Shown here: positions 394 to 40,600 of the stretch, piece after piece | How positions within the stretch are numbered: position 1 is the stretch's first letter | Layout of the letters: every line of letters begins with the position of its first letter | Source of the DNA: a virus | Strand: one strand, 5' to 3' | Length of the DNA stretch: 58,857 bases | IMG/VR virus record: IMGVR_UViG_3300045988_042242 | Coordinates: 1-58,857 of that record | Made by a program: the position numbers and the translations under genes | The notes under the pieces: generated by a model | What the model was told of the DNA's origin: nothing | What the model saw: the letters and a program-made list of their open reading frames with translations, nothing else | The model's database searches: none

Positions 394-993
394 TTAGTCG
401 GGAAGTCCTGCCGCCCACGACTTCGCATCTTCTTTTGCTTGCGTGAGGTCAATTTTACCGGCTTCATGCGCCTGACCCTTGGGCATGAGAGAATTGTTGA
501 CAAGTTCTTGCTTGAAGTTCGCAAGTTCAGCGTCAACGTCTGCATCTTCAGCGATGCTTCCGATGATACGCTTCACCATAAATTCCGGAATACCGAGCTT
601 CTTTGCCTTGTCGGCGATTGTTGTTGCCCTTTCGGTCGCTGCTTTTTCGGCTTTCAGGTCGTTGTTCTCTTTTTCGAGAGCCGCGATGCGCTGGTCGTTG
701 CTTTGCTGATACTGCTTGAACCAAGCGGGCATTTCAGTGTCGCTTTCGTCCTCTCCGTCACCCTCGTCTTCAGATTGTTTCTTGGTAGATGACTTGCGCG
801 TCTTTCTTGTGATTTCTCCCTGCATCGCCTTTGCATAGGGAACAAGCAAATCCGCTTTTGCGGCAATTTCTTCGTCAGTTGACTCGTCTGTGAGTTCTGA
901 AGAACCGAGTTCTGTCAGTTCTTCAAGTGCTTTCTTCGTTAAACCAAAAGACTTGCACTTCGTCTTTAAGACTTCAAAAAGTTTAGTGTTCAT
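394..993 (-). CDS. Scaffolding protein (199 aa)
   Basis: Start refined to the ATG at 993 (MNTKLFEVLK...). The protein is helical and highly charged, with an acidic tract EDEGDGEDESD and a coiled-coil segment. It lies immediately upstream of the decoration-like and capsid genes. Confidence 0.55.
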   Translation of the reverse strand: MNTKLFEVLKTKCKSFGLTKKALEELTELGSSELTDESTDEEIAAKADLLVPYAKAMQGEITRKTRKSSTKKQSEDEGDGEDESDTEMPAWFKQYQQSNDQRIAALEKENNDLKAEKAATERATTIADKAKKLGIPEFMVKRIIGSIAEDADVDAELANFKQELVNNSLMPKGQAHEAGKIDLTQAKEDAKSWAAGLPD

Positions 994-1200
994 TGCAATG
1001 AATTTGTTTGATGTACAGATGTCTATGCGCAAAGGTACTTATAATTTCCGAAAAAGTGGCTATTAAACACCGAAAATATGAAATTTTTTATTATGACGTA
1101 AATCATTAAGGTACAGACATTACCATATCTATGAAGTATTTTTATTGGATTTTTCTGCCATTTTTCCTGTTAAAAAGTTGCCTATTCGGGAAATAGGTTA

Positions 1201-1257: not shown

Positions 1258-1527
1258 ATGAAGACAAAAACATTCAAACAGATTATCGACCACCTGATTG
1301 AAAAAGGTGTTGAAACTATCAAAATCATGAGAAGTGATAGTTACTGCGGTTGCATAAATCCAAACGACATCATCGCTATCGAAGTAATAAAGAACAACAT
1401 GGTTTACTTCGCTTCTGTATCACACGTTTTCGACAACCCGATAATAGACGTTGACCGCATCATCAGAAATGAAAATGGTCGTTGCATCAGTCGCTTCACA
1501 ATCGGTCAATTCAAATACACAAAATAA
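1258..1527 (+). CDS. Hypothetical protein (89 aa)
   Basis: ORF preceded by the leader ttcagcgcaATG and followed by an 8-bp GC hairpin at 1539..1560. Confidence 0.6.
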   Translation: MKTKTFKQIIDHLIEKGVETIKIMRSDSYCGCINPNDIIAIEVIKNNMVYFASVSHVFDNPIIDVDRIIRNENGRCISRFTIGQFKYTK

Positions 1528-1538
1528 ATATAAATCAC

Positions 1539-1560
1539 GTGGCGGCCATAGCGCCGCCAC
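1539..1560 (+). terminator. Hairpin gtggcggc-catagc-gccgccac
   Basis: Perfect 8-bp GC-rich stem directly after the stop of 1258..1527. Confidence 0.5.
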
Positions 1561-1577
1561 ACAATATCATCAACGCA

Positions 1578-1787
1578 ATGAAACCTGAATACATCGCTGA
1601 AGCAATAAGCATCATCAGCAAAAGCAATTCAATCAAAGTGTCGTTCAACGTGCCTGTCAAAGACAACTACTCGCACATATACGCGATACTTATTCACGAG
1701 AGCAACGCATCAGTCATTAACCACCTTATCAACGCCGGCTTTTCGCTATCAATGACAACGAAAGGTCTGTCAGTAGATAAATTCTAA
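1578..1787 (+). CDS. Hypothetical protein (69 aa)
   Basis: Start refined to the ATG at 1578, which follows the leader atcaacgcaATG. The longer track ORF starting at 1482 runs through the upstream terminator hairpin. Confidence 0.55.
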   Translation: MKPEYIAEAISIISKSNSIKVSFNVPVKDNYSHIYAILIHESNASVINHLINAGFSLSMTTKGLSVDKF

Positions 1788-1799
1788 ATCATCATCACT

Positions 1800-1997
1800 A
1801 TGTTCTCAGAAAACATCACAGCACTTCTTTCAGAATACGGTTTCGAGTTCATCAAACAGAATGGTGTAAATGAATACATCAGTTACTTCAAAAGTGTTGT
1901 AAGTCGCAAACTTGAAGCAAAGACGATAACTGAAACCGCTGCAAAAGTTGCAATAAGTCGCGCTGAAGCAATCGCGTTATACTGCTTAAACAACTAA
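1800..1997 (+). CDS. Hypothetical protein (65 aa)
   Basis: ORF followed by an 11-bp hairpin at 2009..2038. Confidence 0.5.
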   Translation: MFSENITALLSEYGFEFIKQNGVNEYISYFKSVVSRKLEAKTITETAAKVAISRAEAIALYCLNN

Positions 1998-2008
1998 ATT
2001 ATTAACCC

Positions 2009-2038
2009 GGAAGACTGACATATATCAGTCAGTCTTCC
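2009..2038 (+). terminator. Hairpin ggaagactgac-N8-gtcagtcttcc
   Basis: Perfect 11-bp inverted repeat between two plus-strand genes. Confidence 0.5.
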
Positions 2039-2055
2039 ACAAAAATATCAACGCA

Positions 2056-2967
2056 ATGATTACAGAAACAACTCTCGACAACAAACTTTTTGACTTCGAC
2101 AAGGCAAAAGTTCAGACGCTCACACTCGAACAACTTGAGCGCACGCACAAAGAAAATGATGTGTACGGAAATCCGCTTCGTGGCATCTATCATTTCCAAC
2201 TTCTTCAGACACTCATAAACGAGTGCAACAACATCGGCTACAATGTCGAAGTGTACGACCTGTTCGCTGCACAGAACAAAGACCGCAACACGCCTGGTGT
2301 CGTGCTGCTTCCGCAAGTAGAAGCACAGTACGGACAGCGTGCTGTTGAAGCGCACATCTTGCGCCGCGTCTTCGCAAACATTCGTATCACAGACTTCGAT
2401 GATGAAGAAAAAACGACCAATCTTGCAGTCGCTTTTCATCAGAAAGGCATACAGGTTGGCTTCGGAAATATGGTCAAGATATGCCACAATCAGACAATGC
2501 TGTGCGCTGACAAGTACATCGCTACATACAGCGAACGCGGCAACGGTCGCGGTGAACCTATCACAATTCCGCAAGTCATAGATGTTGTGAAGTCTTGGCT
2601 TGTAGATGCGCGTCACATCATCGTCACAGAGCGCGAAAAGATTGAGCGCATGAAGTCAATCGAAGTCGGCATGCAACAGATGTTGCTTATCATCGGAATG
2701 CTTACCGCTATTCGCGTGAAGTGTGACACAAGCATTTCATCAATCAAAGAAAACCGCGTCTATCCGCTTAATCAGGCACAGATTTCACGCTTCACTGAAA
2801 GCCTGATGGTGAAGTCGCAAGAAATGGGCGGCAGCATCAGCGCATGGGACTTGTATAACAGTGCGACAGACCTCTACAAAGCCGACAGCATGGATATACC
2901 GGCACTGCTTCCACAGAACCGTGCAATGGTACGCTTCCTTGACGAGCAATTCAATTTGAATGTATAA
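2056..2967 (+). CDS. DUF932/DUF3871-like protein of the kind carried by Bacteroides conjugative elements (tentative family call)
   Basis: 303 aa. Leader tcaacgcaATG. The family was recognised by memory only, from the GFGNMVKICHNQTMLC-type core. Followed by the hairpin at 2977..3003. Confidence 0.4.
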   Translation: MITETTLDNKLFDFDKAKVQTLTLEQLERTHKENDVYGNPLRGIYHFQLLQTLINECNNIGYNVEVYDLFAAQNKDRNTPGVVLLPQVEAQYGQRAVEAHILRRVFANIRITDFDDEEKTTNLAVAFHQKGIQVGFGNMVKICHNQTMLCADKYIATYSERGNGRGEPITIPQVIDVVKSWLVDARHIIVTEREKIERMKSIEVGMQQMLLIIGMLTAIRVKCDTSISSIKENRVYPLNQAQISRFTESLMVKSQEMGGSISAWDLYNSATDLYKADSMDIPALLPQNRAMVRFLDEQFNLNV

Positions 2968-2976
2968 ACTATCATC

Positions 2977-3003
2977 GCACGTCTGCCAACGCGGCAGGCG
3001 TGC
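2977..3003 (+). terminator. Hairpin gcacgtctgcc-aacgc-ggcaggcgtgc
   Basis: 11-bp stem with one G-U pair, directly after the stop at 2967. Confidence 0.5.
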
Positions 3004-3019
3004 TTAAAACTAAATCACA

Positions 3020-3472
3020 ATGGAAATTAAAGTCAACATACCTAAAAACGAATATAAACAGCCTACAGAAGTACGCGCTGAAGTAGTTCAAGCAATCTGT
3101 GAAGCGTTCATCAAAAAGACGTGCGGTTCAACATTTCACCCATACGCCGGCAGCAACAACGGAAGTCGCAATGCGACACTTTGGCTGTTCAAGCAAAATG
3201 GCAGCGGATATGCGCCCAGTTTTACCACACACGAATACGCACATCGTGACGCACAGGAAGCCGAAAAGAAAGGAAAGGAATACATCATGTATCGTATTCG
3301 CGGCTGTGAAATGAAAGCGGCGTTTGACGCTCTTCAGAAAGCCGGTTACTATATGTTCCGGTGCTACCATTACGGTTCCTGGTTAGGTTACGACTGCGGA
3401 ACTAAACCTGAAATGATGCTTGGCACACAGCATTGTGAACGTGTTACTTCATTCAACGATTTCATTGATTAA
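3020..3472 (+). CDS. Hypothetical protein (150 aa)
   Basis: Uninterrupted ORF in the plus-strand island. No motif recognised. Confidence 0.55.
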   Translation: MEIKVNIPKNEYKQPTEVRAEVVQAICEAFIKKTCGSTFHPYAGSNNGSRNATLWLFKQNGSGYAPSFTTHEYAHRDAQEAEKKGKEYIMYRIRGCEMKAAFDALQKAGYYMFRCYHYGSWLGYDCGTKPEMMLGTQHCERVTSFNDFID

Positions 3473-3485
3473 CCTATAATAGAAA

Positions 3486-3773
3486 ATGGAAAACTTTATC
3501 ATAAAGACAGACGGCTCAAAGCACGTCATCGCACCAAAGAACGGAAATAAGTTTGAACTTGAAGAACTGCAAGAACTTGTAGGCGGTTACATTCAAGTCA
3601 TCAGACTTAACAACAAGGACAATCAGTGTATGATTGTCAACGAAAACGGCAAACTGTACAACATGGCACACAATGATGAAGCATCAATCATCGCGCACAG
3701 CGCAAAAGCAATCTTCGACTGTGACTATATTGTCGGCGATGCTGTCATTATCAATTATGAACAATTAGACTGA
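3486..3773 (+). CDS. DUF3846-like protein (tentative; family often found in conjugative-element leading regions)
   Basis: 95 aa. The segment ELEELQELVGGYIQVIRL...MIVNENGKL resembles the DUF3846 pattern from memory. Confidence 0.4.
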   Translation: MENFIIKTDGSKHVIAPKNGNKFELEELQELVGGYIQVIRLNNKDNQCMIVNENGKLYNMAHNDEASIIAHSAKAIFDCDYIVGDAVIINYEQLD

Positions 3774-3780
3774 TACAACC

Positions 3781-4161
3781 ATGAAGAAAGCAATCATTCT
3801 GAAGACCGGCGAAGTCATTACGGTCTATGATAGAAAGTTTGAAGTCGTTGACTACGGACACATATATGTCGCCATTGATGCGATAAACAACGTATTTGAC
3901 GAAACAGAACTGCACGTCATTGATGACACACAAGCGTTCATCGAAGAAAATCTTCCTGACTACAACACGAACACCAATGTAACGCTGTCAGATGACATAC
4001 AGTGCTGTCTTGAAGGTGAAGGAACTCCTCATAAGTTTGAAAACGTGATAAATAACTGCGGAAGACACATTGAAGATTGGGAGTGCGCACAGATACGCAT
4101 CGAGCGCGAACTGCTTGAAGAAGCTGCAAGCAATTTCATAGCACAGAAAACAAATAGGTGA
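3781..4161 (+). CDS. Hypothetical acidic protein (126 aa)
   Basis: ORF tightly spaced after 3486..3773. Confidence 0.5.
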   Translation: MKKAIILKTGEVITVYDRKFEVVDYGHIYVAIDAINNVFDETELHVIDDTQAFIEENLPDYNTNTNVTLSDDIQCCLEGEGTPHKFENVINNCGRHIEDWECAQIRIERELLEEAASNFIAQKTNR

Positions 4162-4241
4162 CGTTCTTCGCGATTTGACGTATTAGGTTGATAAATTACT
4201 CATTTATTGACAGAAAACGCGCCAAATCGCGGGAATTTCCG

Positions 4242-4249
4242 TAACTTTG
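4242..4249 (+). promoter_or_regulatory. Bacteroidota-type -7 promoter box TAACTTTG
   Basis: Matches TAnnTTTG about 22 nt upstream of the ATG at 4271. It is flanked upstream by the 9-bp inverted repeat cgcgatttg (4169..4177) / caaatcgcg (4223..4231). Confidence 0.45.
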
Positions 4250-4270
4250 CATCATTAAATTCAACGCAAT

Positions 4271-4507
4271 ATGGCTACACAGAAAATCGTTCATCTACAT
4301 CTGAAGATACCAATTGACAACAAGACAGATTTCTACTTCGGTAGTATCAAAGCAATCTTTGACTTCGTAACTGAAGCAACAATCGGCATCAGGTACAAGT
4401 CACTGACAAATGCGCTTCGCGGTCGTGACTTCTATAACAACAAGCACTGCACCGTGCGCATTAGTTCACTTATTACAAAACAACAGACTAAAAACAGAAC
4501 TTTATGA
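4271..4507 (+). CDS. Hypothetical protein (78 aa), translationally coupled to the ADP-ribosylglycohydrolase gene
   Basis: Leader tcaacgcaatATG. Its stop overlaps the next start (ATGA at 4504). Confidence 0.55.
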   Translation: MATQKIVHLHLKIPIDNKTDFYFGSIKAIFDFVTEATIGIRYKSLTNALRGRDFYNNKHCTVRISSLITKQQTKNRTL

Positions 4508-5280
4508 TTGGTGCAATTATCGGTGACATTGTTGGTTCTCGCTTCGAGTTCAACAACACCGACAAGAAAGATTTTAAGTTGTTCACAAAAGACTGTGACT
4601 TCACCGATGACACAATCTGCACTGTTGCTGTTGCAGATGCTATTCTTCGCAATGTGTCATTCAAAGACAGTCTGCTTCATTGGTGCGCAAAGTACCCTAA
4701 CCCTATGGGCGCATACGGCGGTTCATTCAGTGCGTGGCTTCGTTCTCCGATACATGAACCGTACAATAGTTTCGGTAACGGTTCTGCTATGCGCGTATCA
4801 CCGTGTGCGCTTGCTGCGCGTTCTGATTATGAAGCGATACGTCTTGCGTATGACAGTGCTGCTTGCACGCACAATCACGCTGAAGGTGTCATCGGAGCCG
4901 TTGCGACCGCGCTTGTCATTCGTGCGTTTCAAGCGTCAGCCGGTCGTGAACTGACTGCACGCATAGACGCTGAAAGCATCATTTCAACCTATTACGGCGA
5001 AGATTGGAACAATCGTCTTCCTGTGCGCGGTTACTTCGATGTGACGTGTCAAGGTTGTGTGCCTCTTGCATACTACATCATCGACAACAGTCACAGTTTT
5101 GAAGATGCGATACGAAACGCTGTATCATACGGCGGTGACAGCGACACACTTGCAGCGATTGTCGGGTCTATGGCAGAAGCGTTGTGGGGAGTTACAGAAG
5201 AACTTAAAGAACAAGCGTTCACATACTTGCCTGAAGAAATGAAACAAGTCATAAATCAGTTCTATGCAACTGTGATTTAG
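4504..5280 (+). CDS. ADP-ribosylglycohydrolase (ARH/DraG family)
   Basis: MIGAIIGDIVGSRFEF N-terminus, TDDT motif, GNGSAMRVSP, and a C-terminal YGGDSDTLAAIVGSMAEALWG metal-binding motif. Confidence 0.85.
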   Translation: MIGAIIGDIVGSRFEFNNTDKKDFKLFTKDCDFTDDTICTVAVADAILRNVSFKDSLLHWCAKYPNPMGAYGGSFSAWLRSPIHEPYNSFGNGSAMRVSPCALAARSDYEAIRLAYDSAACTHNHAEGVIGAVATALVIRAFQASAGRELTARIDAESIISTYYGEDWNNRLPVRGYFDVTCQGCVPLAYYIIDNSHSFEDAIRNAVSYGGDSDTLAAIVGSMAEALWGVTEELKEQAFTYLPEEMKQVINQFYATVI

Positions 5281-5355
5281 TTTGAAGATAAAAACAAACT
5301 GAGTTTTAGTTGTTTACAACAAAATTTGATTAACAATGAAAATAAAAATACATAT

Positions 5356-5667
5356 ATGAAGAAAGAAAACGACAACTTGCTGAAGTTCTGCCGGTACTAT
5401 CACGGCGAAAAGACTTGCAAAAGCACTGACAAAGACGTTCAGATGCTGTTCAACATTGAACGAATATGGATTGATAGAATGAGTTCTGAAGAAAGCAATT
5501 TTGAAGAACTACTCGATGAATATGTAACGTTTGGTCTGACTGTGTTTTGCGAAACAGATGATGTGCCGGTGACGTTGAAAGCACTTCTGTTCAACCGCTT
5601 TTCACAGTACAACGACCGCATTGATGTTGATGCTTTCAAGACGTGGTACAAGAAGCATTACGATTGA
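5356..5667 (+). CDS. Hypothetical protein (103 aa; alternative start at 5326)
   Basis: ORF ending at the bidirectional terminator. Confidence 0.45.
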   Translation: MKKENDNLLKFCRYYHGEKTCKSTDKDVQMLFNIERIWIDRMSSEESNFEELLDEYVTFGLTVFCETDDVPVTLKALLFNRFSQYNDRIDVDAFKTWYKKHYD

Positions 5668-5696
5668 CAAACTGATTTCACAATCAATTCTTTCAC

Positions 5697-5739
5697 AAAG
5701 AAAGCTGCACCGTTTATCACGATACAGCTTTCTTTTTTT
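5697..5739. terminator. Bidirectional terminator between convergent genes
   Basis: 11-bp stem aaagaaagctg / cagctttcttt (5697..5707 and 5725..5735) followed by a T-run. It lies between the stops at 5667 (+) and 5738 (-). Confidence 0.65.
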
Positions 5740-8647
5740 ACTTGAATTTGCAGTAAAAACCGCCTGACCCAATTTCAAAACTTTCAATCGGTCGCGGATA
5801 TTGCGACAGAACTTCACAGTCGATATACCACTGACCTGATTTATATTCCGCTTTAGTGATACGGAACTTTGTTCCACGTTGCAGAATAATTTCGTTTTCA
5901 TGCGTTGTCAATGGCTTCGATGAACCGTCCCAAGACTTACCAGGTTTATATATTCCGTTGTCGTGCTTTCCTCCAAATTCAGAAAACGGTTCTGCGTATA
6001 TCAATCGCGTCTGCTTCGGACAATATATGTTCAGAATTACAGGCTTTGAACCGAAGTATGTGCTTTTGTTGTTTCCACAAGACATGAAACTTTCATCTAC
6101 ACCAATGCGTCCGACAAGTGCTGACGGGTTGCTTTCATAGAGTGATAAATCAGGGATGCCCCAACGATATTCAGCGCACCATGCACCTTCATCGCGCTTT
6201 ATCCAAATGTCATGCGTACAATAGCATCGTGATATGATATTTGTCATTTGTTCAACATCTCTTTCACTTTCGTCTTTTCGCGATGTATAGTAATGATAAT
6301 ATCCTTTAATAGCTCGAAGTGGTTCTGTTATGTAAGAACTTCCAGCGGTGTACTGATGCAATGCTTTCTTTTCTTCTGCTGAAGCGGCAAGCCATTGTGC
6401 TTTGGTGTTCGTTTCTTCAAAGTAGAAGTCATTCGCATCTGTGTCGTTCTTGAACCATTTTGCCGCATCTTTTCGTTCTTGTGTTCGTGTATCATCATCG
6501 AAGTCTATCTGATTGAGGTTTGTAACACCTTTTCCTTTCTTTGCATCGCGACGTGCCTGTGCTGCTTCGAGTGCTGCCTTTTTCTTCTCTGCTTCACTGA
6601 CATACATTTCTGCTTCAAACAAATTGTCACTTGTCAGATTTGTTTCTGCCTGTGCAATTAGTGATGCAAGTGTTGTCGCTTTTGTGTGCGCTGAAAGATA
6701 CGTCTTCAATATGTTGAGTTTCGCTGTCAACTCATTTACTTTCTGCTGATGCTTAACCTTTGCCAATTCTTGCATATATGCCGACTGCGAAACTTTCCAT
6801 GTCGGGTAAATGCTGTGCGGTTTCAGATATGTCGGGTCAGATACATACTTGATTTCATTTTCAAGTTTCTTGATTTGCTTGTCAATAGGCAAAGATGCAA
6901 TCTGTGCAAGTTTGTTCTGCACTGCATCGTGTGCTGCTTGAAGTTCTGACACTGTGAATTGGTCTGACCACTGCTTTGCGTTCGGGATAACTGAAGACAT
7001 TGACTGAAGTTGCTTCTTGATTGCCACAATCTGCTGTGCAAGTGCGCGTGTCTGCGTGTTGATTGCAGACAAGTTGCCTGTCTTCAGCGCGTCATTCAAA
7101 GAAGTGACTGCATCAGTGTCAACAGTGAAGTCTTTGTACTTCGATGTGACACCGATGACATTGCTTGCCGTCTTCTTGATTTGCTGCTGCTTCTTCGCCA
7201 TGACCTGTGCAAGCACACGTGTTTCGGCATTGATGATTGCCGTGTCACCTGACTGCACCGCCGCTTCGAGTGCAACAGTATCAAGACCGAAGTCTGCAAA
7301 GCGCGTGGTCGCTGTTTTAAGCACGTTCTGCGCTGTCTTTTTGATGCGTTCGATGCGAATACGTTCCGCTTCCGCTGCTTTCTTTTCAGCCGCGATGCGT
7401 TCTTGACGCTCCTGCCACTTCATACGTATCGCTTCTTCCTGTTCAGGCGTTCGGTTCGCGTGACGCTGTTCTGCGATTTCAAGCGGCGTCAGTTTCTCCT
7501 TCGGGTTCAATATGTCCTGTACTGCGTTGAAGTTGTTCCGCACAAAATATGGGTCAGTACCGATGTCGTGCGATGCAAGTATCTTGTCTTCGTTGTCGCG
7601 CACCCATTCTTTGAAGTTTTCAGGATATTGCGTGATGCGCTTTCCGCGTGGCTTGTATTCTTTTCCCTCAAGCATCGCTTCGTTCATCTTCTGTATTTCT
7701 TCTTCGTCCATAAGAATTGGCGTGACGAAACAGAAGCATTGAGGATGCCAGCCGTCAAAGACAAAATCGGGTGGATAGTCACCGGCTAACTTGTCACAGA
7801 TGTCTTTCTTCGGGTGATTGCGCGACAACTGAACGCGCTGACCGAGAACAAAGTCCATTTGCTGCCAACGTGTGTTATCTGCACGCCTGTACGCGATATT
7901 CGTTTCTGTGCGTGCTACACGCATAGCGTTCTGCGCTGAAGACTTGTAATAACCGGGACCCGTCCATTCGTCCTGATAACTGTCTTTGTCGTAGTCTATG
8001 AAATGCACTTTGCCGTCTTCACCGATGACACGCTTCTTCCACTTGCGCTTCCATTCGCCGGTTTCAGGGTCTTTGTATCTAAAACGGCGAAACATCAGGT
8101 CAGGGTCGTTCAGATACTTGCGCACGCTGCGCGACATTGTTGCTGCTGAAGTACCGTCACCGACCGCTACTGTGATAGCGACTTCCATTTCATCGCGTAG
8201 TTGTCTGCACGACTTCCATACGCGCTGCGATAGGTTCAGACCATTTTCGCTGCGTGCTATGAAAGCCGCCATTGCTGCTTCATTGCGCTGCGTCCAGGCA
8301 GAAAATTCAGGCGTTTCAAGTGCTTTCTTGCCAAAACAAGACTGAACAAGTTTGTCACATTCCGCGTTTGCTTGCGCCCATTCAAGTTTGACACCTGACT
8401 GTATCGCCATAGTCGCAACGCTGTGAAGTTGTCGAAGAAGACGCTCTACTTCGTGCTGTTTCTTAATACCGACAGTATCGAACGAGAACATTTCACCGTC
8501 CTCAAGTGTAGGCAGCGACTTGTTCAGCGCAAGAATTTCGTTCACGGTAGCCGCGAACAGCGTGCGCACACGTTCTGCATACGCTTCTGTGCGTCTGATA
8601 CGCGCAAGCGTGTTCTTCTTCGGGTCATTGTCACTTTTCTTTGCCAT
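5738..8647 (-). CDS. Minor head (Mu F / SPP1 gp7-like morphogenesis) protein with a long coiled-coil linker and a C-terminal ADP-ribosyltransferase toxin domain
   Basis: 969 aa. Mu F-type region: RVARTETNIAYRR...CDKLAGDYP...GWHPQCFCF. Two internal repeats of about 55 aa begin KKTAQNVL... and KKTASNVI.... The C-terminal domain carries R-S-E ART motifs: YTAGSSYITEPLR, WIKRDEG, SFMSCG and HENEIILQRGTKFRI. Confidence 0.85.
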   Translation of the reverse strand: MAKKSDNDPKKNTLARIRRTEAYAERVRTLFAATVNEILALNKSLPTLEDGEMFSFDTVGIKKQHEVERLLRQLHSVATMAIQSGVKLEWAQANAECDKLVQSCFGKKALETPEFSAWTQRNEAAMAAFIARSENGLNLSQRVWKSCRQLRDEMEVAITVAVGDGTSAATMSRSVRKYLNDPDLMFRRFRYKDPETGEWKRKWKKRVIGEDGKVHFIDYDKDSYQDEWTGPGYYKSSAQNAMRVARTETNIAYRRADNTRWQQMDFVLGQRVQLSRNHPKKDICDKLAGDYPPDFVFDGWHPQCFCFVTPILMDEEEIQKMNEAMLEGKEYKPRGKRITQYPENFKEWVRDNEDKILASHDIGTDPYFVRNNFNAVQDILNPKEKLTPLEIAEQRHANRTPEQEEAIRMKWQERQERIAAEKKAAEAERIRIERIKKTAQNVLKTATTRFADFGLDTVALEAAVQSGDTAIINAETRVLAQVMAKKQQQIKKTASNVIGVTSKYKDFTVDTDAVTSLNDALKTGNLSAINTQTRALAQQIVAIKKQLQSMSSVIPNAKQWSDQFTVSELQAAHDAVQNKLAQIASLPIDKQIKKLENEIKYVSDPTYLKPHSIYPTWKVSQSAYMQELAKVKHQQKVNELTAKLNILKTYLSAHTKATTLASLIAQAETNLTSDNLFEAEMYVSEAEKKKAALEAAQARRDAKKGKGVTNLNQIDFDDDTRTQERKDAAKWFKNDTDANDFYFEETNTKAQWLAASAEEKKALHQYTAGSSYITEPLRAIKGYYHYYTSRKDESERDVEQMTNIISRCYCTHDIWIKRDEGAWCAEYRWGIPDLSLYESNPSALVGRIGVDESFMSCGNNKSTYFGSKPVILNIYCPKQTRLIYAEPFSEFGGKHDNGIYKPGKSWDGSSKPLTTHENEIILQRGTKFRITKAEYKSGQWYIDCEVLSQYPRPIESFEIGSGGFYCKFK

Positions 8648-8879
8648 AGGGTAGGATTATGAATTGTTCGTCTTCTTCATCATCATCGTCTTCCTCTGCT
8701 TCCTCACAGTCTTCAGCCGGTGCATCAGATGCGTATGCTGTGAAGCCGCACGCGCGGCGTGCCTTGTCTTCAGCACCGACATAGATGCTTCTGAAGACAG
8801 GCACACCTAAAATGTAGAGTGTCGTTACTTCACCCGATTTTGTTTCTTTGGTATATTTGCAGATGACAGGCTTCATCAT
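8631..8879 (-). CDS. Hypothetical small acidic protein (82 aa)
   Basis: The ORF overlaps the portal stop and the start of the minor head gene. Poly-acidic tail EEAEEDDDDEEDE. Confidence 0.4.
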   Translation of the reverse strand: MMKPVICKYTKETKSGEVTTLYILGVPVFRSIYVGAEDKARRACGFTAYASDAPAEDCEEAEEDDDDEEDEQFIILPYGKEK

Positions 8880-10420
8880 TCTTCAGACTTCTTTTTCTTC
8901 TTGTTATCTTCTTTCTTCTTGCTTTCATCACCGTCTTCTTCGTCTTCTTCGTCTTCTTCGTCTTCGCTTCCGTCACCATAAGACTGCGCACCGGCACCGG
9001 CTGCATCGCCGAAGATAGACATTTGCTGCTGCTGTCTTTCTTCCTGTTCTGCTTTCAGACGTTCAAGTTCGCGTGTCACGTCTTTCACAAGTGGGTTCTG
9101 TTCAACTGACGTTTCGCGTGACTGAATACCGCCGTCATACGCTTTCAAGATGTTATCAATGTCATCAGACACATCTTCGCCGAACGGTTCTTGAAATTCG
9201 TGACCGATGCTTGCTTGTTCGCACTGTCCGTGAAGCGACACATCAAGCACGTTGCCGATGATAGCAAGCACAAGCGATGCTGTGCGGTCAAGCAATTCAT
9301 CGTGCTTTTCCTTTCGCTTTGATGCTTTAATGTCAGCCAACATCATAACCGTGCGAAGTGCTTTTGCAGACAGCGTTGAAAGCGACTTCAGCGTGTCAAG
9401 CGTGATGTGCGGTGTGAAACTGTTAGTCAGTATCTGATTTTGCAGCCATTCGATTTCGTCTTTCTTCGACTCCGGCGCACTGTCCCAAGTGACATAGTGC
9501 ATCGCGTCTGTTGTCTTCTGTCCTGACTTCACATAAAGCGATTTGCCGACTGCATCTTTTTCAGGCAAGTTCTTGATTGCATCTGCATCGAAGACTGCAA
9601 TCGGTTCTGCGAAGTAGTCGTTTGTGTCCGCTGTGCGTGAAGCAATCATTTCTTCGCGCTCGATAAGCGGTTCAACGCCGTGCCATTCTTTTTCTTGCTG
9701 AAACAGAATGATTGGTATCTTGCCTATCAGGTTCGGTTCTTCTTCAACGTCCCAACCGAGCATACCATGCTTGCAGCGATATATGATTTCGGGCGTGAAG
9801 ATGTCGAAGTGTTCAACGACCTTGTTTTCTTTCTCGCGCACGCGATAGCCCCAAGCAACACTGATAAGGTTTTCATATTGGTCAAAACGTGTGTATATGT
9901 CATCGCCCTTGCTTTTGGCAAGCACGCGAATTTGCACATCTGGTTCTCCTGTCTTGTCATCCTTGAAGACGCGGAACAACATCGCGCTTTCTGTTTCTGC
10001 TCCGGCAATACGCTTGCACTCGCGTATCTTGCTGTCAAAGCGCGTGCGCTTTATCACATCTTGGAACTTGTCGAAGACTGCATCTGTGCCGTCAGACAGT
10101 TGCGACCACTTGACAGGTCTGCCATACATGAACACAAGCGCGATTTCGTTGATGTACTGCTGATATGGAATTGGCAACTTCGCGACTGACACTTTCTTGC
10201 GCATCTTGCCTTTCTTGTCAGTCAGGATTTTGTCTTCACGCAACATTACGCTGTGAGTGCGTATGTTGTATTCTTTCATCGCTGCAAGTGCCTGTGCGCC
10301 GTTAGTTGTCATCTGACTGCGTACTGCGTCAATGTCACCCAGTGCAAGCAACTCGTCAAATTCTTGCTTTCTGCCAAGAATTGAGTTCATCGAATTTCGT
10401 AGAATGTCGAATAATACCAT
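8876..10420 (-). CDS. Portal protein (SPP1 gp6-like)
   Basis: 514 aa, immediately downstream of TerL. Size and general portal-like sequence fit, with an acidic/lysine-rich C-terminal tail. Confidence 0.8.
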   Translation of the reverse strand: MVLFDILRNSMNSILGRKQEFDELLALGDIDAVRSQMTTNGAQALAAMKEYNIRTHSVMLREDKILTDKKGKMRKKVSVAKLPIPYQQYINEIALVFMYGRPVKWSQLSDGTDAVFDKFQDVIKRTRFDSKIRECKRIAGAETESAMLFRVFKDDKTGEPDVQIRVLAKSKGDDIYTRFDQYENLISVAWGYRVREKENKVVEHFDIFTPEIIYRCKHGMLGWDVEEEPNLIGKIPIILFQQEKEWHGVEPLIEREEMIASRTADTNDYFAEPIAVFDADAIKNLPEKDAVGKSLYVKSGQKTTDAMHYVTWDSAPESKKDEIEWLQNQILTNSFTPHITLDTLKSLSTLSAKALRTVMMLADIKASKRKEKHDELLDRTASLVLAIIGNVLDVSLHGQCEQASIGHEFQEPFGEDVSDDIDNILKAYDGGIQSRETSVEQNPLVKDVTRELERLKAEQEERQQQQMSIFGDAAGAGAQSYGDGSEDEEDEEDEEDGDESKKKEDNKKKKKSEE

Positions 10421-10440: not shown

Positions 10441-11919
10441 TTAGACGATATTGATGTTGTCATAATCTATGTCATCATCGTCTTCGTAAAGGTCATTGAT
10501 TGCATAGCCGAGTATATCGACAAATTCATCATGCGGTGCTGCCGGAAAGGCGCACACCTGGTCAAGAAAGTCTTCGTTCCAAGACCCTTCAACGATGAAG
10601 ACACGCCCACACTCAATGCGCGGTGACACAACACGCAATCTGACTTCTTTGTCATCAACAGGCACAGGCGTTTCAGTTACGTTCAGCGTTGACACTTCGC
10701 GAAGCATCTGAACGACACTGATGCCGTTTGCCTTTGGCTCAATATGCAAGACAGACTCTTTGTTGCCACAATGAGCGGCGATGTATTCAGGTAAGAAGCG
10801 CAACAGGTCGGGCATTTCTTTCCACACACTCTGCGCGTCATACAAGTATATGTTCTGACCGATGCGACACGCTGCAAGAACTCCTGACGGGTCGTTGTCG
10901 CTTTTCTGCTGCTTCTTCTTGTACGCTGTATCAAGATAGAAGTGCATCGGTTCACGGAAGCGAAGCGCGGTAAAGTCTGCGTAACTGATTTTGCGGAACC
11001 AATCACGCTTCACGATGTTACCGCCCTCAATGGTCGGTCGCTGCTGATACAGCGCACTAAATTCACGCGGCGCACGCTTCTTCTGCTTCTGAAGTTTCTG
11101 AAGTGAGTGCTTTTGAGGCCATAGCGCATCACCGATATGTCTTTCAGACTGAAGTTCGCCGTCATGCTCCTTTTCACAGATAGCCGGAATGACAACGACT
11201 GTCCATTCTTCGGGTTCTGCTTTCAGCAAGCGACCTGCAAGGTCATCTTCATGCCAGCGCGTCATTATGAACAACTGCTTGCTGTCATTGTGAAGACGTG
11301 TTGAAAGAACGGTGTTGTACCAATTCCACACACGCTGACGATAAGTGACGCTGTATGCTTCAGTGGCATCTTTCACAGGGTCATCAATGATTGCGATGTC
11401 AACCGGTGTACCTGTCAGACCGCCGCCGACACCTACTGCCTTGTAGAAGCCTCGATGTCCTACGGTTTCAAAGTAGTCAACATTGCGAAGATAGCCGCGT
11501 GAAGATTTGTCGTTGCGCTGCGTCATGCTTCCCGACAGGTATGTGTCCGGGAATATAGTATGATATTCTTCGCTGTCAATCGTTCGTTGTATCGAACGGC
11601 TGAACTGTTCTGCGAGGTCTGAAGAATATGAAGAACCGACAATCTTCAAGTCAGGGTCACGCCCCAACGCCCACGCCGGAAAGTTTCGCGATATGATTTC
11701 AGACTTGCCGTGCTGCGGCGGCATGAAAAGCATCAACTTCTTGATTTTGCCTTCAAACAACTTCTGACAGTAGTCTGCGATAAGAATGTGAAACCATTCT
11801 GCCTGATACTTTGGGTTCGCATATCCAAGAAAGCACGCAAAACGCTTCGGTGCTTCAAGCCGTAACTTGGTGCGCCGAAGTGTCATCAATCGTCTTTTTC
11901 TTTCTTGTTCTGTCATCAT
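10441..11919 (-). CDS. terL: Terminase large subunit
   Basis: 492 aa. Walker A-like PPQHGKSE, Walker B IAIIDDP, and a C-terminal RNaseH-like nuclease region (YLDTAYKKK...DPSGV). Confidence 0.9.
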   Translation of the reverse strand: MMTEQERKRRLMTLRRTKLRLEAPKRFACFLGYANPKYQAEWFHILIADYCQKLFEGKIKKLMLFMPPQHGKSEIISRNFPAWALGRDPDLKIVGSSYSSDLAEQFSRSIQRTIDSEEYHTIFPDTYLSGSMTQRNDKSSRGYLRNVDYFETVGHRGFYKAVGVGGGLTGTPVDIAIIDDPVKDATEAYSVTYRQRVWNWYNTVLSTRLHNDSKQLFIMTRWHEDDLAGRLLKAEPEEWTVVVIPAICEKEHDGELQSERHIGDALWPQKHSLQKLQKQKKRAPREFSALYQQRPTIEGGNIVKRDWFRKISYADFTALRFREPMHFYLDTAYKKKQQKSDNDPSGVLAACRIGQNIYLYDAQSVWKEMPDLLRFLPEYIAAHCGNKESVLHIEPKANGISVVQMLREVSTLNVTETPVPVDDKEVRLRVVSPRIECGRVFIVEGSWNEDFLDQVCAFPAAPHDEFVDILGYAINDLYEDDDDIDYDNINIV

Positions 11920-11933
11920 CGCTGTGAAATGCT

Positions 11934-12440
11934 TTACTTCATGTCGAGTTTTTCAAGACGCTTGATTTCTGCGTCAATATCTTCTTCGCTCATGTGTTCG
12001 TCTGCGTCACGCTTCGATACTGCGATATTTTCTTTCAGACCGAGGTCACGCGCAATGATGTTCGCGTTGTACAGACCCACGACCGCGCCGTCAAACTTCG
12101 TGTCGTAACAGTATTGCGTGATGCGTTCGATTACCGCTTCATAGTCTGCGCCACGCTTTCCGTTCGGAAGCGAATACCACCACTGATGCGTCATGCCAAG
12201 CCATCGCGTAACAAAGTCAAGTATCTTCGGCGGTCTTGCATACCGCTGTGTTCTGCGCTGCTGTCTGCGTTCGTCATTGCTTGTCTGATAGCGGTAGTTC
12301 GTTTCGACTTCGATTTGATTTTCTTCGAGGTCTGCGATGTACTTCTTGAACTCTCCGGCAAGGTCTTCAGGCGAATATCGTGCTTTGCGACCGCGAAGAT
12401 TTTCAAAAAGTCGCTTTGTGTCAGGATAGAAATGTGCCAT
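11934..12440 (-). CDS. terS: Terminase small subunit (putative)
   Basis: 168 aa, directly upstream of terL. Size and charged helical sequence are typical of small terminase subunits. Confidence 0.55.
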   Translation of the reverse strand: MAHFYPDTKRLFENLRGRKARYSPEDLAGEFKKYIADLEENQIEVETNYRYQTSNDERRQQRRTQRYARPPKILDFVTRWLGMTHQWWYSLPNGKRGADYEAVIERITQYCYDTKFDGAVVGLYNANIIARDLGLKENIAVSKRDADEHMSEEDIDAEIKRLEKLDMK

Positions 12441-23579: not shown

Positions 23580-24224
23580 TCAGAATACAAAATCACACCA
23601 AAGGTCAACAAACTGATTTCCGGCGTACAACGCTAATTCGCGTGTCTTGAAGGCGAGCCGAGAGCCGTACCTCGTACCCGAGTACGAGGATGCGTTGCTC
23701 GCGTTCGCACAGACGAGGCCGCCATACGCGTTGGCGTTGCTACCCGAGCGACCAACGACACGGCAGCATCTTTCTTTGTCATCTGCGTCAAGGTCGTTGT
23801 ATTCGTCTTCTGTGTATAGGCAGAACCACGGATAATACTTACATTCGTCACTGTTCGTCCAATCGGGTGCCCAGCCTTGATTGAGTGCTGCTGTGATGAT
23901 GCGCAACTTCAAGAAAGCCGTCAGGTCGCGCATATCTTTTTCGTTGCCGTTCATCTGCTGTTCATACAGATGATATTGACGTACAAGCGTGTGGTCTTCG
24001 CCGAGAACTGCAATAGCATCTTCAAGCGTCTTCACACGTTCTGTGATTGGGCGGTTGTCAACGGCAGCTTCGATGTGTTCTGCTTCGATGACATACTTCT
24101 TTCCTGTTGAGTCGAATTTGACTTCGTACAGATGCGGTTCACGTTTGATGTCTATGACTTCAGTAATGATGCCCTCTTGGTCGAAGACATTTACTTTTTG
24201 ATTTAATTCAAATTGATTTTTCAT
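23580..24224 (-). CDS. Second (remote) DGR target protein, 214 aa, with a variable region near its C-terminus
   Basis: The C-terminal segment CRVVGRSGSNANAYGGLVCANASNASSYSGTRYGSRLAF is encoded by a copy of the template repeat that differs mainly at TR adenines. No signal peptide or TM segment is seen. Confidence 0.8.
   Translation of the reverse strand: MKNQFELNQKVNVFDQEGIITEVIDIKREPHLYEVKFDSTGKKYVIEAEHIEAAVDNRPITERVKTLEDAIAVLGEDHTLVRQYHLYEQQMNGNEKDMRDLTAFLKLRIITAALNQGWAPDWTNSDECKYYPWFCLYTEDEYNDLDADDKERCCRVVGRSGSNANAYGGLVCANASNASSYSGTRYGSRLAFKTRELALYAGNQFVDLWCDFVF
23653..23765 (-). repeat. DGR variable repeat 2 (VR2)
   Basis: 113-bp alignment to the TR shows 13 differences. Eleven are at TR adenines (coding strand), all in AAY codons or TAT. 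The shared 3' flank CTTCA extends it to 23648. Confidence 0.85.
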
Positions 24225-31073: not shown

Positions 31074-31113
31074 ACAAAGACAGCGTGACGTTCATAGCCA
31101 CGCTGTCTTTGTT
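31073..31113. terminator. Bidirectional terminator between the lysogeny operon and the integrase gene
   Basis: Perfect 15-bp inverted repeat aacaaagacagcgtg / cacgctgtctttgtt. Confidence 0.7.
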
Positions 31114-32257
31114 ATTCATCATCCTCAAACAAGTTCGGTATTCGTTCAACCGCTGCTTTCTTGTTCTTGTCTAATATCTTCGCATACACTTGTGTCGTTT
31201 CAATGCTCTTGTGTCCTAACAACTTCGATACTGTGTAAAGGTCAACGCCCAAGTCGAGCATCATAACTGCGAATGTATGTCGCGCACAGTGAAACGTGAT
31301 GTGCTTGTTGATACCGGCACTTTTCACCCATGCCGCGATGCTGATGCGTACCGCCTGTATTGGACCAAGTTTCGGGAAGACGCGGTCTTCAGGGTTGCCA
31401 CGTTCACCAAGCATCGAAGCTGCTTGCGTGTTCAGGTCAAGATATTCAAGTCCGCCGGTCTTCTTCTGCGTGAACACGATGCGCGTGCCTGTGTGCCATT
31501 CTTGCACTTCACTCCACTTCAGTTTCACAATGTCGCTCCAGCGCAACCCGGTCAGGCAAGAAAAGAAAAACGCTTGTGCAAGGTCTTCATTCGGTGGCGG
31601 TGTCTTGCGTAGTTTCTTGATTTCTTCAATCGTCAGAAATTCGCGGTCAGACTCAGGTTCTTTGAAGCGTTCAACACCGGCGGTCGGGTTGAAACGTATG
31701 ATACCCTCGCGCATCGCGATATTGAAGACGCTGCAAAACTTCTGAAACATAAGTGCCTTTGTTCCCTGCGATATTGGCTTTGGCTCAACATCGCGCTTTC
31801 GTGTGTCAATCGCCCACTGCATCGCTTCTGTGTCAAGATAGTCACGGAAGCCACGCACCCACTGCGGCGTGATTTCACCGAACGTGATGCGTTCGTTCGG
31901 TTCATACTTCAGAATGTGTGCAAGGCAGTTCTGCCAACTTGTCTTTGTCGTGCCGTCCTTGCGGTCTATAATCTTGCGCATGACCTCAATAAACATCGCG
32001 TCTTCGTGCGTCTGTACGTCAATGCCAAAGTCTTTTGACTGAATTTCGACCACGCGCTTTGCACGCATCGCTTCAGCAAGTTTCAGCGTTTCTTTGTTCT
32101 TCTGCTTGTCTTCGCGTGTCTTTTCCGGCACAAGATACATTTTCAGATATTCATTCGTGCGCTTGCCGTCACGACAAATATCAAGATACAGCGCAATCGT
32201 ACCGTTTCTGCGCGGTCGCTTGCGTAGATAGACGATTTCTTTTTTTTTCTGTGTCAT
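31112..32257 (-). CDS. int: Tyrosine recombinase / phage integrase (Bacteroidota type)
   Basis: Start refined to MTQKKKEIVYLRKR... at 32257, with the leader catattgcggtga. The catalytic region includes HCARHTFAVMM and LLGHKSIETTQVYAKI. An N-terminal SAM-like arm-binding domain is present. Confidence 0.9.
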   Translation of the reverse strand: MTQKKKEIVYLRKRPRRNGTIALYLDICRDGKRTNEYLKMYLVPEKTREDKQKNKETLKLAEAMRAKRVVEIQSKDFGIDVQTHEDAMFIEVMRKIIDRKDGTTKTSWQNCLAHILKYEPNERITFGEITPQWVRGFRDYLDTEAMQWAIDTRKRDVEPKPISQGTKALMFQKFCSVFNIAMREGIIRFNPTAGVERFKEPESDREFLTIEEIKKLRKTPPPNEDLAQAFFFSCLTGLRWSDIVKLKWSEVQEWHTGTRIVFTQKKTGGLEYLDLNTQAASMLGERGNPEDRVFPKLGPIQAVRISIAAWVKSAGINKHITFHCARHTFAVMMLDLGVDLYTVSKLLGHKSIETTQVYAKILDKNKKAAVERIPNLFEDDE

Positions 32258-32664
32258 ATTGCGGTGAATTTTGTTGCGCATGATGCGCGATTTTGACCGC
32301 GCAACAAAAACGCACCGCAAAGATAGCATATATTTAGCACATTTGCGCACACTTTTGGAAAATAAAGAAACCGCAACATAAATGTTTCAGTCTGTGATAC
32401 TGTGCATTTATGTTGCGGTCGTATGTCGTGTGAGTGCGTTACCTGAAAACTTCGTCTTTCGCCTTAAAATTCACTGGTAAAATGCTATATTCTTCATTTA
32501 TTTTGTTGATATTCTGCAATTTGTGCCGCTGTTCAAGTTGCTTGCGCAACAAAAACGCACCATTTTATGCAAAAATACCGTCCGAAGTGCCGTAAAGGCC
32601 ACCCCGGACGGCTTCAACGCAATGATGACTGAAATAATCATCATCTGTGCAAAGGTAGTCATTT
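32258..32664. other. Non-coding attP-candidate region
   Basis: 407-bp gap next to int. It has an 18-bp direct repeat gcgcaacaaaaacgcacc (32299..32316 and 32544..32561), a 14-bp inverted repeat ccgcaacataaatg / catttatgttgcgg (about 32372..32419), and a minus-strand -7 box TATCTTTG (plus-strand caaagata at 32319..32326). Confidence 0.45.
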
Positions 32665-39021: not shown

Positions 39022-40383
39022 TTAATCATCGAAGTAGTAGCGTGTGCCACCACCGCCTTGAAACGGTTCACTTCGTATTGTTACAGCGATTGAAGTCGTG
39101 TCGAGTGTTCCGCGCATAGCATCAAGCATCGTCTTCATTTCATCGCTGTTTGTGAAGAACTTCGACATTTGACCTGTATTCAACTTTCTGAACGAAACAA
39201 GATAACGACCGTCACCTTGCTTTGTCTTCACATCACGTTCAAAGTCTATCAGTTCAATCGGTACGTTTACGATTGAACTGATGCGCACACACTCGCCGTT
39301 GAAGCGTTTCTTTCCGTCTTTAGGCGTATATGTCAGATTTAAATCACTGAATTTAATCATTTCTTGTTTTGTTAAAATTTTCTTTAATAGATGTTTGCAG
39401 TCTGCGTGTTTCGCCATGCCGTACAGTGAGCCGACAATTTCAACCCTGCGCTTTCTGCTTTTCACTTTCGCGAGTTTACGACAGAAGTTCTTCTTGACAC
39501 GCTTGCGCAAAAGCGTATGTGTCGTGAATATCTGATAACCGAGAAAGTCAAGACCTGTTTCGATAGGGAAAACACGCTCATTCTTCTTGATTGTCTGACC
39601 GATGCTTTCGATATGTTCATGCACTTCGTCACGCACAAGCCACAGAAAGCGTTTGTCTGATGCGCCCACGACAATATCGTCCATGTAGCGATAGAAGTGC
39701 CGCACACCGTATCTGTCTTTCATAAAGTGGTCAAGATGAACCGACAGAAGAAGATTGACAAGACCTTGTGAAGACCGCATACCCATACTCATGCGCTCGC
39801 CGTCCGGCATCGTTGCAAGAAAGTCGGCAAGTATCGCGATAAGTCGCTTGTCTTTGAATACACGGTTGAGCGCGTACAACACAAATTCATGCTTCACTGT
39901 GTCGTAGCACTTCTTTATGTCACATTTATACCAATACAGTATTGATGTGTCTTGCATCATGTCACGTCTGATGTACTGCATCAGGTCGTGCATTCCGCGC
40001 TTTTTGATTGATGCTGAAGTAGTGCGTATATAACGAGGGCGAAGATGCTTGTCAACAGGTCGCATTACAGCATTGATTTTGATGCGTGCTGCCATGCAAT
40101 ACACCTGAAGAAGACGTTTCTTCCCTGCTTCACAGATTTCTTTTTCGTGATAGCCACCGGTGCGCAATTCTTCTTCGGTCGGTGCGCGATGTACAGGCAT
40201 CAGTGAAATTTTCCCTGACACGATTTCTTCGCGCACTGACTTCAGAAATTCTTCGCGATGTTCAAGAAGCCATTTACCTTCAGGCAAACTTTTTCGGAGC
40301 GTTCCTCTGACTACATCGTCAAACGACTCTTCAAGATTTGTCTGTTCAATGATTTCTTCTATTATGTAACCGTCACGTTTCAT
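39022..40383 (-). CDS. DGR-type reverse transcriptase
   Basis: 453 aa. RT motifs YKCDIKKCYDTV (3), MGMRSSQGLVNLLL (4, with the DGR-typical SQ), YRYMDDIVV (5, YxDD) and LDFLGYQIF (7). It is adjacent to the TR/VR pair. Confidence 0.9.
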   Translation of the reverse strand: MKRDGYIIEEIIEQTNLEESFDDVVRGTLRKSLPEGKWLLEHREEFLKSVREEIVSGKISLMPVHRAPTEEELRTGGYHEKEICEAGKKRLLQVYCMAARIKINAVMRPVDKHLRPRYIRTTSASIKKRGMHDLMQYIRRDMMQDTSILYWYKCDIKKCYDTVKHEFVLYALNRVFKDKRLIAILADFLATMPDGERMSMGMRSSQGLVNLLLSVHLDHFMKDRYGVRHFYRYMDDIVVGASDKRFLWLVRDEVHEHIESIGQTIKKNERVFPIETGLDFLGYQIFTTHTLLRKRVKKNFCRKLAKVKSRKRRVEIVGSLYGMAKHADCKHLLKKILTKQEMIKFSDLNLTYTPKDGKKRFNGECVRISSIVNVPIELIDFERDVKTKQGDGRYLVSFRKLNTGQMSKFFTNSDEMKTMLDAMRGTLDTTSIAVTIRSEPFQGGGGTRYYFDD

Positions 40384-40600
40384 GTGCTGTTGTTATATAT
40401 GCCTTCAGTTCTCCGGGTCTATGATGTTCGAGAATTAACCTACCAATCACTACCCAACCAACAACGTAATTTTTCAGTTTTCCACGACTGATGTGTCATG
40501 CTGTTACTGAGGCTCGGTTTCCTCGTTCACGGCTATGCGCCAGCGCGTGACGCTATGCCGGAGGAACGATTGATAATTGTTGTTGTATTCTGTTCTGTTT

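Follow-up and report, generated by a model that had tools for sequence, protein, structure and literature searches.

A probable toxin-immunity module of Bxa/BAH/Bsi type among the head genes of a temperate Bacteroidales-type phage

IMG/VR record IMGVR_UViG_3300045988_042242 is a complete virus with direct terminal repeats, and positions 1 to 58,857, its whole length, form the stretch of DNA analysed here, called the window below. It carries the gene of a 969-amino-acid (aa) protein, which joins a MuF-like head domain to a C-terminal ADP-ribosyltransferase (ART) domain and which faces, on the opposite strand, a gene for an ADP-ribosylglycohydrolase (ARH) and two smaller open reading frames (ORFs). 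The published system with which this locus is compared consists of Bxa, a MuF-ART protein of 869 aa from a prophage of Bacteroides stercoris, and of its neighbours BAH and Bsi (Alexei et al. 2024, PMC11699363).

Toxin gene and antidote genes

The elements of the locus, numbered by their positions in the window, are as follows.

4242..4249, plus strand: -7 promoter-like element TAACTTTG, which fits the Bacteroides consensus TAnnTTTG and lies 21 nucleotides (nt) upstream of the 78-aa ORF
4271..4507, plus strand: 78-aa ORF, phrog_10608 (E 3.6e-20), with an ATGA overlap with the ARH gene
4504..5280, plus strand: ADP-ribosylglycohydrolase (BAH-like ARH), 258 aa, Pfam ADP_ribosyl_GH 8.7e-33 and phrog_6572 3.9e-65
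5356..5667, plus strand: Bsi-like protein, 103 aa (ATG 5356) or 113 aa (TTG 5326), phrog_19606 4.1e-23
5697..5742, both strands: hairpin with 17-nt arms at 5697-5713 and 5719-5735, then a run of seven T, overlapping the toxin stop codon
5738..8647, minus strand: MuF-ART toxin ORF, 969 aa, which comes after the genes of TerS, TerL, the portal protein and an 82-aa ORF
7448..8647, minus strand: N-terminal MuF-like head-morphogenesis domain, residues 1-400, with ARTETN and HPQCFC motifs
6491..7447, minus strand: middle linker, roughly residues 401-719, about 60 residues longer than in the Bxa profile
5741..6490, minus strand: ART domain, residues ~720-969, placed by Pfam, motifs, invariant residues and predicted fold
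6194-6196, 6080-6082, 5897-5899 and 5891-5893, minus strand: codons of R818, S856, E917 and E919 of the ART domain, respectively

The initial annotation had described the C-terminus of the 969-aa protein as a toxin-like ADP-ribosyltransferase, and the profile search bears this out, as Pfam ADPrib_exo_Tox matches residues 752-935 at E 6e-12 with 45.7 bits (cut-off 23.4). The motifs of the domain are YTAGSSY (766-772), EPLR (775-778), WIKRDEG (815-821), SFMSCG (853-858), and HENEIILQRG (916-925). All of the R-S-E signatures quoted in that annotation are present, and the catalytic residues are conserved on alignment: R818, S856, E917, E919, and Q923-R924-G925 are invariant in 7-8 relatives, which are 29-47% identical in the ART domain. 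R778, in the EPLR motif, is not conserved, one relative reading EPCY. Since R818 is invariant in the ART alignment, the arginine of WIKRDEG is assigned as the catalytic one.

A phmmer sequence search of the PDB with the ART domain gave no match. The AlphaFold2 model, which covers residues 715-969 with a mean pLDDT of 76.6 and a pTM of 0.80, has C3 exoenzymes as its best Foldseek matches in the PDB, with C3bot1 (2c8g) at E 2.5e-14 and a target-normalised TM of 0.74-0.76, and these are followed by VIP2, CDTa, iota toxin, Certhrax, and a Listeria ART-ARH pair. The ExE loop is associated with transfer to arginine and the QxE loop of C3 with transfer to asparagine. As judged from its sequence, the ART domain of the 969-aa protein fits an arginine-type (ExE), C3-like enzyme, which agrees with the activity measured for Bxa.

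The N-terminus matches phrog_7625 “head morphogenesis” (1.1e-51), phrog_115 “minor head protein” (3.9e-25), and phrog_1657 (4.3e-24), and is labelled MuF because of these PHROG matches, the gene order and the literature. The profile phrog_16625, “Bxa ADP-ribosyl transferase”, is matched over its whole length at 1.5e-211 and in two stretches, with residues 1 to ~415 on profile positions 1-411 and residues 474-968 on profile positions 392-869. The linker contains a diverged tandem repeat of about 57 aa, in which residues 460-509 pair with residues 517-566 (repeat score 64; positions 6950-7270 of the window). The two units contain LEAAVQSGDTAIINAETRVLAQ... and LNDALKTGNLSAINTQTRALAQ..., respectively, and the repeat explains some of the residues that Bxa-type proteins of 869 aa lack.

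The ORF at 4504..5280 proves to be a genuine ADP-ribosylglycohydrolase, as annotated at first: besides the Pfam match listed above, E15 is conserved within GSRFEF, and this residue and the metal-site motifs FTDDT and GGDSDT fall, on alignment, on the catalytic and metal-binding positions of ARH3. Its described coupling to the 78-aa ORF is also seen, as bases 4504-4507 read ATGA. The ARH and the 78-aa ORF, the neighbours named by the initial annotation, are thus both in place, but a second immunity gene, the Bsi-like ORF at 5356..5667, had been overlooked. The closest homologues of this ORF are 100-104 aa long. Its product is most likely, by analogy with Bsi, a candidate non-enzymatic inhibitor of the ART domain, for which binding and block of the active site are predicted.

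The hairpin lies between the convergent units and has folding z-scores, against shuffled sequence, of -4.3 on the plus strand and -7.8 on the minus strand. A simple terminator scan did not list the 5697-5735 hairpin, which probably works as a terminator in both directions, for the immunity operon on one side and the toxin gene on the other. A terminator of this kind had been proposed as shared by the toxin and ARH genes; the hairpin and its T-run agree with it, but the ARH gene does not abut it, as the 103-aa ORF intervenes. On the other side of the cassette, the -7-like element is a consensus match only, TAnnTTTG not being enriched in the window (13 found vs 10.4 expected), and the full Bacteroides promoter pattern TTTG...TAnnTTTG has no match upstream of the antidote cassette. 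A second -7-like element, TATCTTTG, at 1201-1208, precedes the first gene of the plus-strand block to which the antidote genes belong. As the antidote cassette is a separate unit on the strand opposite to the late genes, we infer that it could be expressed in a lysogen.

Toxin ends among related phages

The 969-aa protein is common in metagenome assemblies, where dozens of variants occur at 96% identity or more on contigs of ~59 kb and of >300 kb, a sign that the phage occurs both free and integrated. A 99%-identical variant in NCBI nr is named ADP-ribosyltransferase exoenzyme of an uncultured Caudoviricetes, and a 66%-identical protein is encoded in a Bacteroides xylanisolvens isolate (prophage). 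A scan of genome contigs found only four distant relatives. The convergent layout is kept in 8/8 closely inspected loci, including those of the B. xylanisolvens isolate genome and of phage Versailles, and consists of an ORF of 78-84 aa, a 257-262-aa hydrolase, in some loci one more ORF, and an ORF of 101-113 aa that faces the end of the toxin gene.

For a wider comparison, 80 IMG/VR loci were gathered with the N-terminal alignment, and the 4 kb downstream of each toxin gene were searched with hidden Markov models made from the eight loci. Fifty-seven loci are evaluable, having a complete toxin gene (>600 aa) and at least 2.5 kb downstream, and grouping of their toxin ends by the C-terminal 200 residues gave eight groups, which are distributed as follows.

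Bxa-like ART ends: 34 loci, hydrolase in 34/34, Bsi-like homologue in 34/34
Second ART subtype (Pfam ADPrib_exo_Tox): 5 loci, hydrolase in 4/5
Six non-ART groups: 18 loci, hydrolase in 1/18

The hydrolase accompanies 38/39 ART ends and 1/18 other ends (Fisher p = 2.3e-12 over the 57 loci), and because it travels with ART ends in this way it is tied to the phage’s own toxin. Homologues of the 78-aa ORF are present in 57/57 loci, whatever the toxin end, so this ORF is a backbone gene and not an ART-specific one. Of the non-ART groups, one is a glutamine deamidase group; a domain of this kind also occurs in two groups of a single locus each, of which one has a CdiA_C-like end. The two largest groups match nothing in Pfam.

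Several of these loci show features of their own. The loci of type 2 (L115-L118, L120, L131, L138) and type 3 (L105-L107, L110, L111, L121) have ends of ~200 aa without a Pfam match, with the motifs ATWTAGDSL...YHGDLTVDCVES and GDGMYVAT...NYMVIWNRS, respectively, and these ends are candidate toxin domains. Downstream of the toxin gene, type 2 loci show a weak match to the Bsi family (E 1e-6 to 1e-8). Among the non-ART loci L121 alone has an ARH, and L101, of the second ART subtype (Pfam 3.7e-14), is the only ART-type locus in which no ARH was detected, over 3.9 kb downstream. In L127 and L128, which were left out of the 57-locus tally, the MuF frame stops after 407 aa, yet ARH and Bsi-like genes lie downstream, and the toxin gene may be split or frameshifted there.

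Identities calculated with fixed domain boundaries differ between the two ends of the 969-aa protein. The N-terminal domain is 89.8% identical to that of the B. xylanisolvens protein and 44.6% identical to that of Versailles, whereas the ART domain is 36.7% identical to that of the B. xylanisolvens protein, otherwise the closest backbone relative, and 61.9% identical to that of Versailles. Because the two domains point to different relatives, the toxin end has been swapped independently of the head-protein body, an exchange that is read from sequence identities and is as expected of a polymorphic toxin. ARH identity follows the backbone, with a Spearman rho of 0.83 with the N-terminal domain and of -0.21 with the C-terminal domain, values which, as with all rho given here, were computed with uneven domain boundaries set by regular expressions. 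Such tracking of the backbone fits a general eraser that needs no recognition of the toxin. In the Bsi-like family, the stretch aligned to Bsi K89-E92 is the most variable one (Q/K/H/Y, M/E/G/D/S) and lies between the conserved LLFNRY and FKK, which is consistent, at the level of sequence, with a hypervariable stretch that contacts a variable toxin.

A probable Bxa-type module and its possible roles

The C-terminal ART domain of Bxa kills E. coli and modifies arginine, and the adjacent hydrolase BAH reverses this arginine ADP-ribosylation and by itself rescues E. coli, its catalytic residue being E15 and the E15A variant being inactive (PMC11699363). Bsi binds and neutralises Bxa, for which K89 and E92 are required, and a third small ORF at the same locus gave no protection; Bxa's N-terminal domain also occurs fused to other toxins (PMC11699363). 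An 869-aa protein of Versailles, a cultured Bacteroides phage, spans positions 1-869/869 of phrog_16625 with 1882 bits, and its E820 aligns with E919 of the 969-aa protein. The Versailles ARH is 55% identical to the product of ORF 4504..5280, with the same N-terminal GDIVGSRFEF in both. In the place of Bsi, Versailles has a protein of 107 aa (196 bits on phrog_19606) that is 37% identical (E 2e-24) to the product of ORF 5356..5667, and its K86-Y87-A88-E89, the K-Y-x-E motif reported for Bsi, corresponds to Q84-Y85-N86-D87 in that product. Binding of the Bsi-like protein to the ART domain is therefore plausible, though not certain.

The locus is very probably a polymorphic toxin-immunity module of the Bxa/BAH/Bsi family, placed in the head-gene region of a temperate Bacteroidales-type phage. 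For this reading the present analysis supplies the identities of the domains, the conservation of their catalytic residues, the order of the genes and the association of the hydrolase with ART-type ends. Several points weigh against it. That the toxin kills, that it acts on arginine, that the hydrolase undoes this and that the small protein binds is taken over from the published homologue, the experiments having been done on Bxa only, and the comparison with Bxa, BAH and Bsi of B. stercoris runs through PHROG profiles and through phage Versailles as a stand-in. The Bsi residues required for neutralisation, K89 and E92, are replaced here by Q84 and D87, and the identities of Bsi-like proteins and ART domains show no significant co-variation (Spearman rho 0.24, n=7 loci). 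The N-terminus has no match to Pfam Phage_Mu_F at E<=10 and none to the gp7-type models of NCBIfam; the Mu F/gp7-like label of the initial annotation leans on the PHROG head families and the gene order, and not on these models.

The 969-aa protein would thus combine a MuF-like minor-head domain, a long linker and an arginine-type (ExE), C3-like ART, whose activity, to go by its sequence and the published homologue, would modify arginines on many proteins and be toxic inside bacteria. The hydrolase, of the ARH1/DraG superfamily, would strip ADP-ribose from the modified proteins, and the ~103-aa protein most likely attaches to the ART domain and obstructs its active site. The genes of both antidotes lie on the opposite strand and form a cassette that apparently has its own promoter-like element and its own terminator; together the two antidotes would shield the producing cell, and probably the lysogen too. 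We infer the timing of cassette expression and the site of toxin action.

The toxin may possibly be delivered by the capsid, a tentative proposal in which a few MuF-ART copies travel inside the head, pass into the next cell along with the DNA and modify host proteins, and in which the ARH and the inhibitor, from the incoming genome or from a lysogen, limit this modification or reset it. The module would in that case be a device for host takeover or for superinfection or kin discrimination, which is compatible with a Bxa-type toxin-immunity module. Alt of phage T4, which is packed in the head and enters with the DNA, is likened to it as a precedent. In favour of such delivery, the N-terminus belongs to head-morphogenesis and minor-head PHROG families, the gene comes after that of the portal protein, and gp7 of SPP1 is a capsid-internal, portal-bound protein. 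The cassette, opposite to the late genes and with its -7-like element and own terminator, could also be expressed independently, although the promoter match is no more frequent than chance in the window. Packing of MuF toxins in the head and their delivery with DNA were proposed by Jamet et al. 2017 (PMC5576092), at the stage of a hypothesis, but the literature surveyed holds no virion proteomics or injection data on Bxa-type proteins, and published work has Bxa secreted or released and acting on gut epithelial cells.

That published work suggests a role in the mammalian host, to which we give no more credence than to capsid delivery: the toxin would be released from lysogens and ADP-ribosylate epithelial proteins, e.g. 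non-muscle myosin II, the inosine set free would feed the bacterium, and the immunity proteins would only prevent self-poisoning before release. Brown et al. 2021 reportedly found that B. stercoris Bxa ADP-ribosylates non-muscle myosin II and causes inosine release. With the Bxa-type protein of Versailles the ART domain shares 62% identity and the ExE loop, and the phage is abundant in metagenome assemblies. Passages of PMC11699363 and of reviews that cite Brown et al. 2021 describe a Bxa that is secreted or released and has gut epithelial cells as its target, and this report on B. stercoris Bxa, as cited there, speaks for the same role. No sequence feature of the protein, however, indicates a eukaryotic target, and the ART is one of several interchangeable ends (glutamine deamidase, CdiA_C-like), which is typical of inter-bacterial toxins.

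Somewhat less probable still is that the exchanged unit is the toxin end together with the Bsi-like gene and the ARH gene, moved between the MuF body and the 78-aa gene, and/or that a virion-injected toxin is tolerated only by antidote-expressing cells. Under such an exchange the 78-aa gene would serve MuF toxins in general, for instance as a regulator or packaging helper, and would not be the kind of spare immunity gene that the 2024 paper proposed its unassigned small ORF to be (PMC11699363). If the toxin is carried by the virion, only lysogens and kin that express the separately promoted cassette would tolerate its entry, and the phage would deliver a kin-discrimination weapon.

It is very improbable that the ARH is an independent counter-defence or housekeeping gene that lies beside the ART gene by chance: phages do encode stand-alone enzymes that remove ADP-ribose, and the ARH sequence tracks the backbone over the ART variant, but the hydrolase is linked to ART-type toxin ends as counted above, and BAH by itself rescues cells from Bxa. 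A counter-defence role of the ARH was rejected for this linkage, which also disfavours the initial suggestion that the enzyme counters ADP-ribosylating defences of the host.

Surrounding genome and comparison with known systems

The phage is a temperate one of gut Bacteroidales type, called temperate because of its integrase gene. The genes outside the locus that bear on its position are the following.

31112..32350, minus strand: integrase, phrog_1, 1.6e-59
11934..12440, minus strand: TerS, the small terminase subunit, in the packaging/head module
10441..11919, minus strand: TerL, the large terminase subunit, phrog_38, 2.9e-105
8876..10420, minus strand: portal protein, phrog_64, 5.7e-53
8631..8879, minus strand: 82-aa ORF between the portal and toxin genes, for which the relatives keep an 81-aa ORF
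394..1032: scaffold-like gene, next around the circle after the 969-aa gene
57421..58530: major head protein gene, next around the circle with the scaffold-like gene

Family searches with the 82-aa ORF gave no match. A plus-strand gene block at 1258..5667, of which the immunity genes are the last three, separates the 969-aa gene from the scaffold and major head genes. The rest of this block, 1258-4161, has ORFs of 89, 101, 65, 303, 150, 95, and 126 aa, most of them without a family match; the 95-aa ORF is DUF3846 (3.9e-11), and the 303-aa, DUF3846, and ~126-aa genes recur in relatives.

A 55-nt direct repeat is identical at 1-55 and 58803-58857, which is typical of an assembly overlap of a circular or permuted genome and leaves 58,802 bp of unique sequence. 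Directly upstream of the small terminase gene, at 12447-13553 on the minus strand, a 368-aa protein is encoded that fuses an ABC-type ATPase to a GNAT acetyltransferase, and it has the same position in the four relatives that show that position (L023, L054, L055, and L057, the last partial). The genome also carries a diversity-generating retroelement, with a reverse transcriptase at 39022..40383 (phrog_1423, 2e-82) and a family of 118-nt repeats at 40596-40713, 40878-40995, and 23648-23765, whose copies are 86-87% identical. The copy at 40878-40995 lies in the 3′ end of a 2515-aa ORF (40852..48399) and that at 23648-23765 in the 3′ end of a 214-aa ORF (23580..24224), which suggests one template and two variable targets.

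The present analysis adds a complete 58.8-kb temperate phage genome, of a phage apparently common in metagenome assemblies, to the Bxa family, a toxin family that has been linked to gut colonisation by Bacteroides. The comparison of relatives puts numbers on two features, the travelling of the hydrolase with ART ends and the exchange of the toxin end independently of the head body, and the Bsi-like stretch that was critical in the 2024 mutagenesis is the most variable part of that protein family. The published picture of Bxa, BAH and Bsi is unchanged by these results.

Among other known systems, the locus resembles the MuF polymorphic toxins (PMC5576092; Zhang et al. 2012, PMC3482391) in having a conserved head domain, interchangeable toxin ends and adjoining small immunity genes, and the backbone of its relatives likewise carries ART, glutamine-deamidase, CdiA_C-like, and unassigned ends. 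The word Bacteroidetes does not occur in the MuF survey of Jamet et al. 2017 (PMC5576092). The pairing of one enzymatic and one binding immunity protein is as in Apk2/Aph1/Tis1 (PMC10083569). Unlike in the MuF toxins and the Apk2 system, the immunity genes are here convergent with the toxin gene and not co-directional downstream of it.

An arginine ADP-ribosyltransferase with a reversing hydrolase of ARH fold is also found in Tre1/Tri1 of the Serratia type VI secretion system, in DraT/DraG, and in the Listeria pair of PDB 8za7, whose ART chain was matched here by fold and whose ARH chain was matched by sequence. The ARH stays below the equivalog cut-offs of NCBIfam for DraG (TIGR02662, 55.5 bits against 337) and Tri1 (NF041672, 32.4 bits against 490), and by its sequence it is assigned to the same superfamily as DraG and Tri1 and not to the same family. 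These systems differ in being delivered by a secretion system or regulatory, and they have no fusion to a phage head protein. With C3 exoenzymes and ARTs of VIP2/iota type the ART domain shares the predicted fold, the R / S-x-S-type / ExE signature and Pfam ADPrib_exo_Tox; its sequence identity to them is 16-19%, and C3 has QxE and an asparagine target where ExE is present here.

The comparison with Bxa, BAH and Bsi of PhiBxa covers the whole locus. Common to both are an apparently MuF-like N-terminus, the linker, the C-terminal ExE ART and its catalytic glutamate (E820 of Bxa, E919 here), the adjacent ARH with E15, the protein of ~100 aa encoded between the ARH and toxin genes, and the location in the head-gene region of a temperate Bacteroidales phage. 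The toxin differs from Bxa (869 aa) in its 969 aa and ~60 extra linker residues, and from the Bxa-type protein of Versailles in an identity of ~43-45% in the N-terminal domain and ~62% in the ART domain; the contact residues K and E of Bsi are Q and D here. The toxin-immunity logic that the initial annotation proposed for the ART and ARH genes matches the tested Bxa/BAH pair, but as an idea it had already been published, which was unknown to that annotation. The locus is thus another, domain-shuffled example of the published Bxa/BAH/Bsi system and not a new kind of system.

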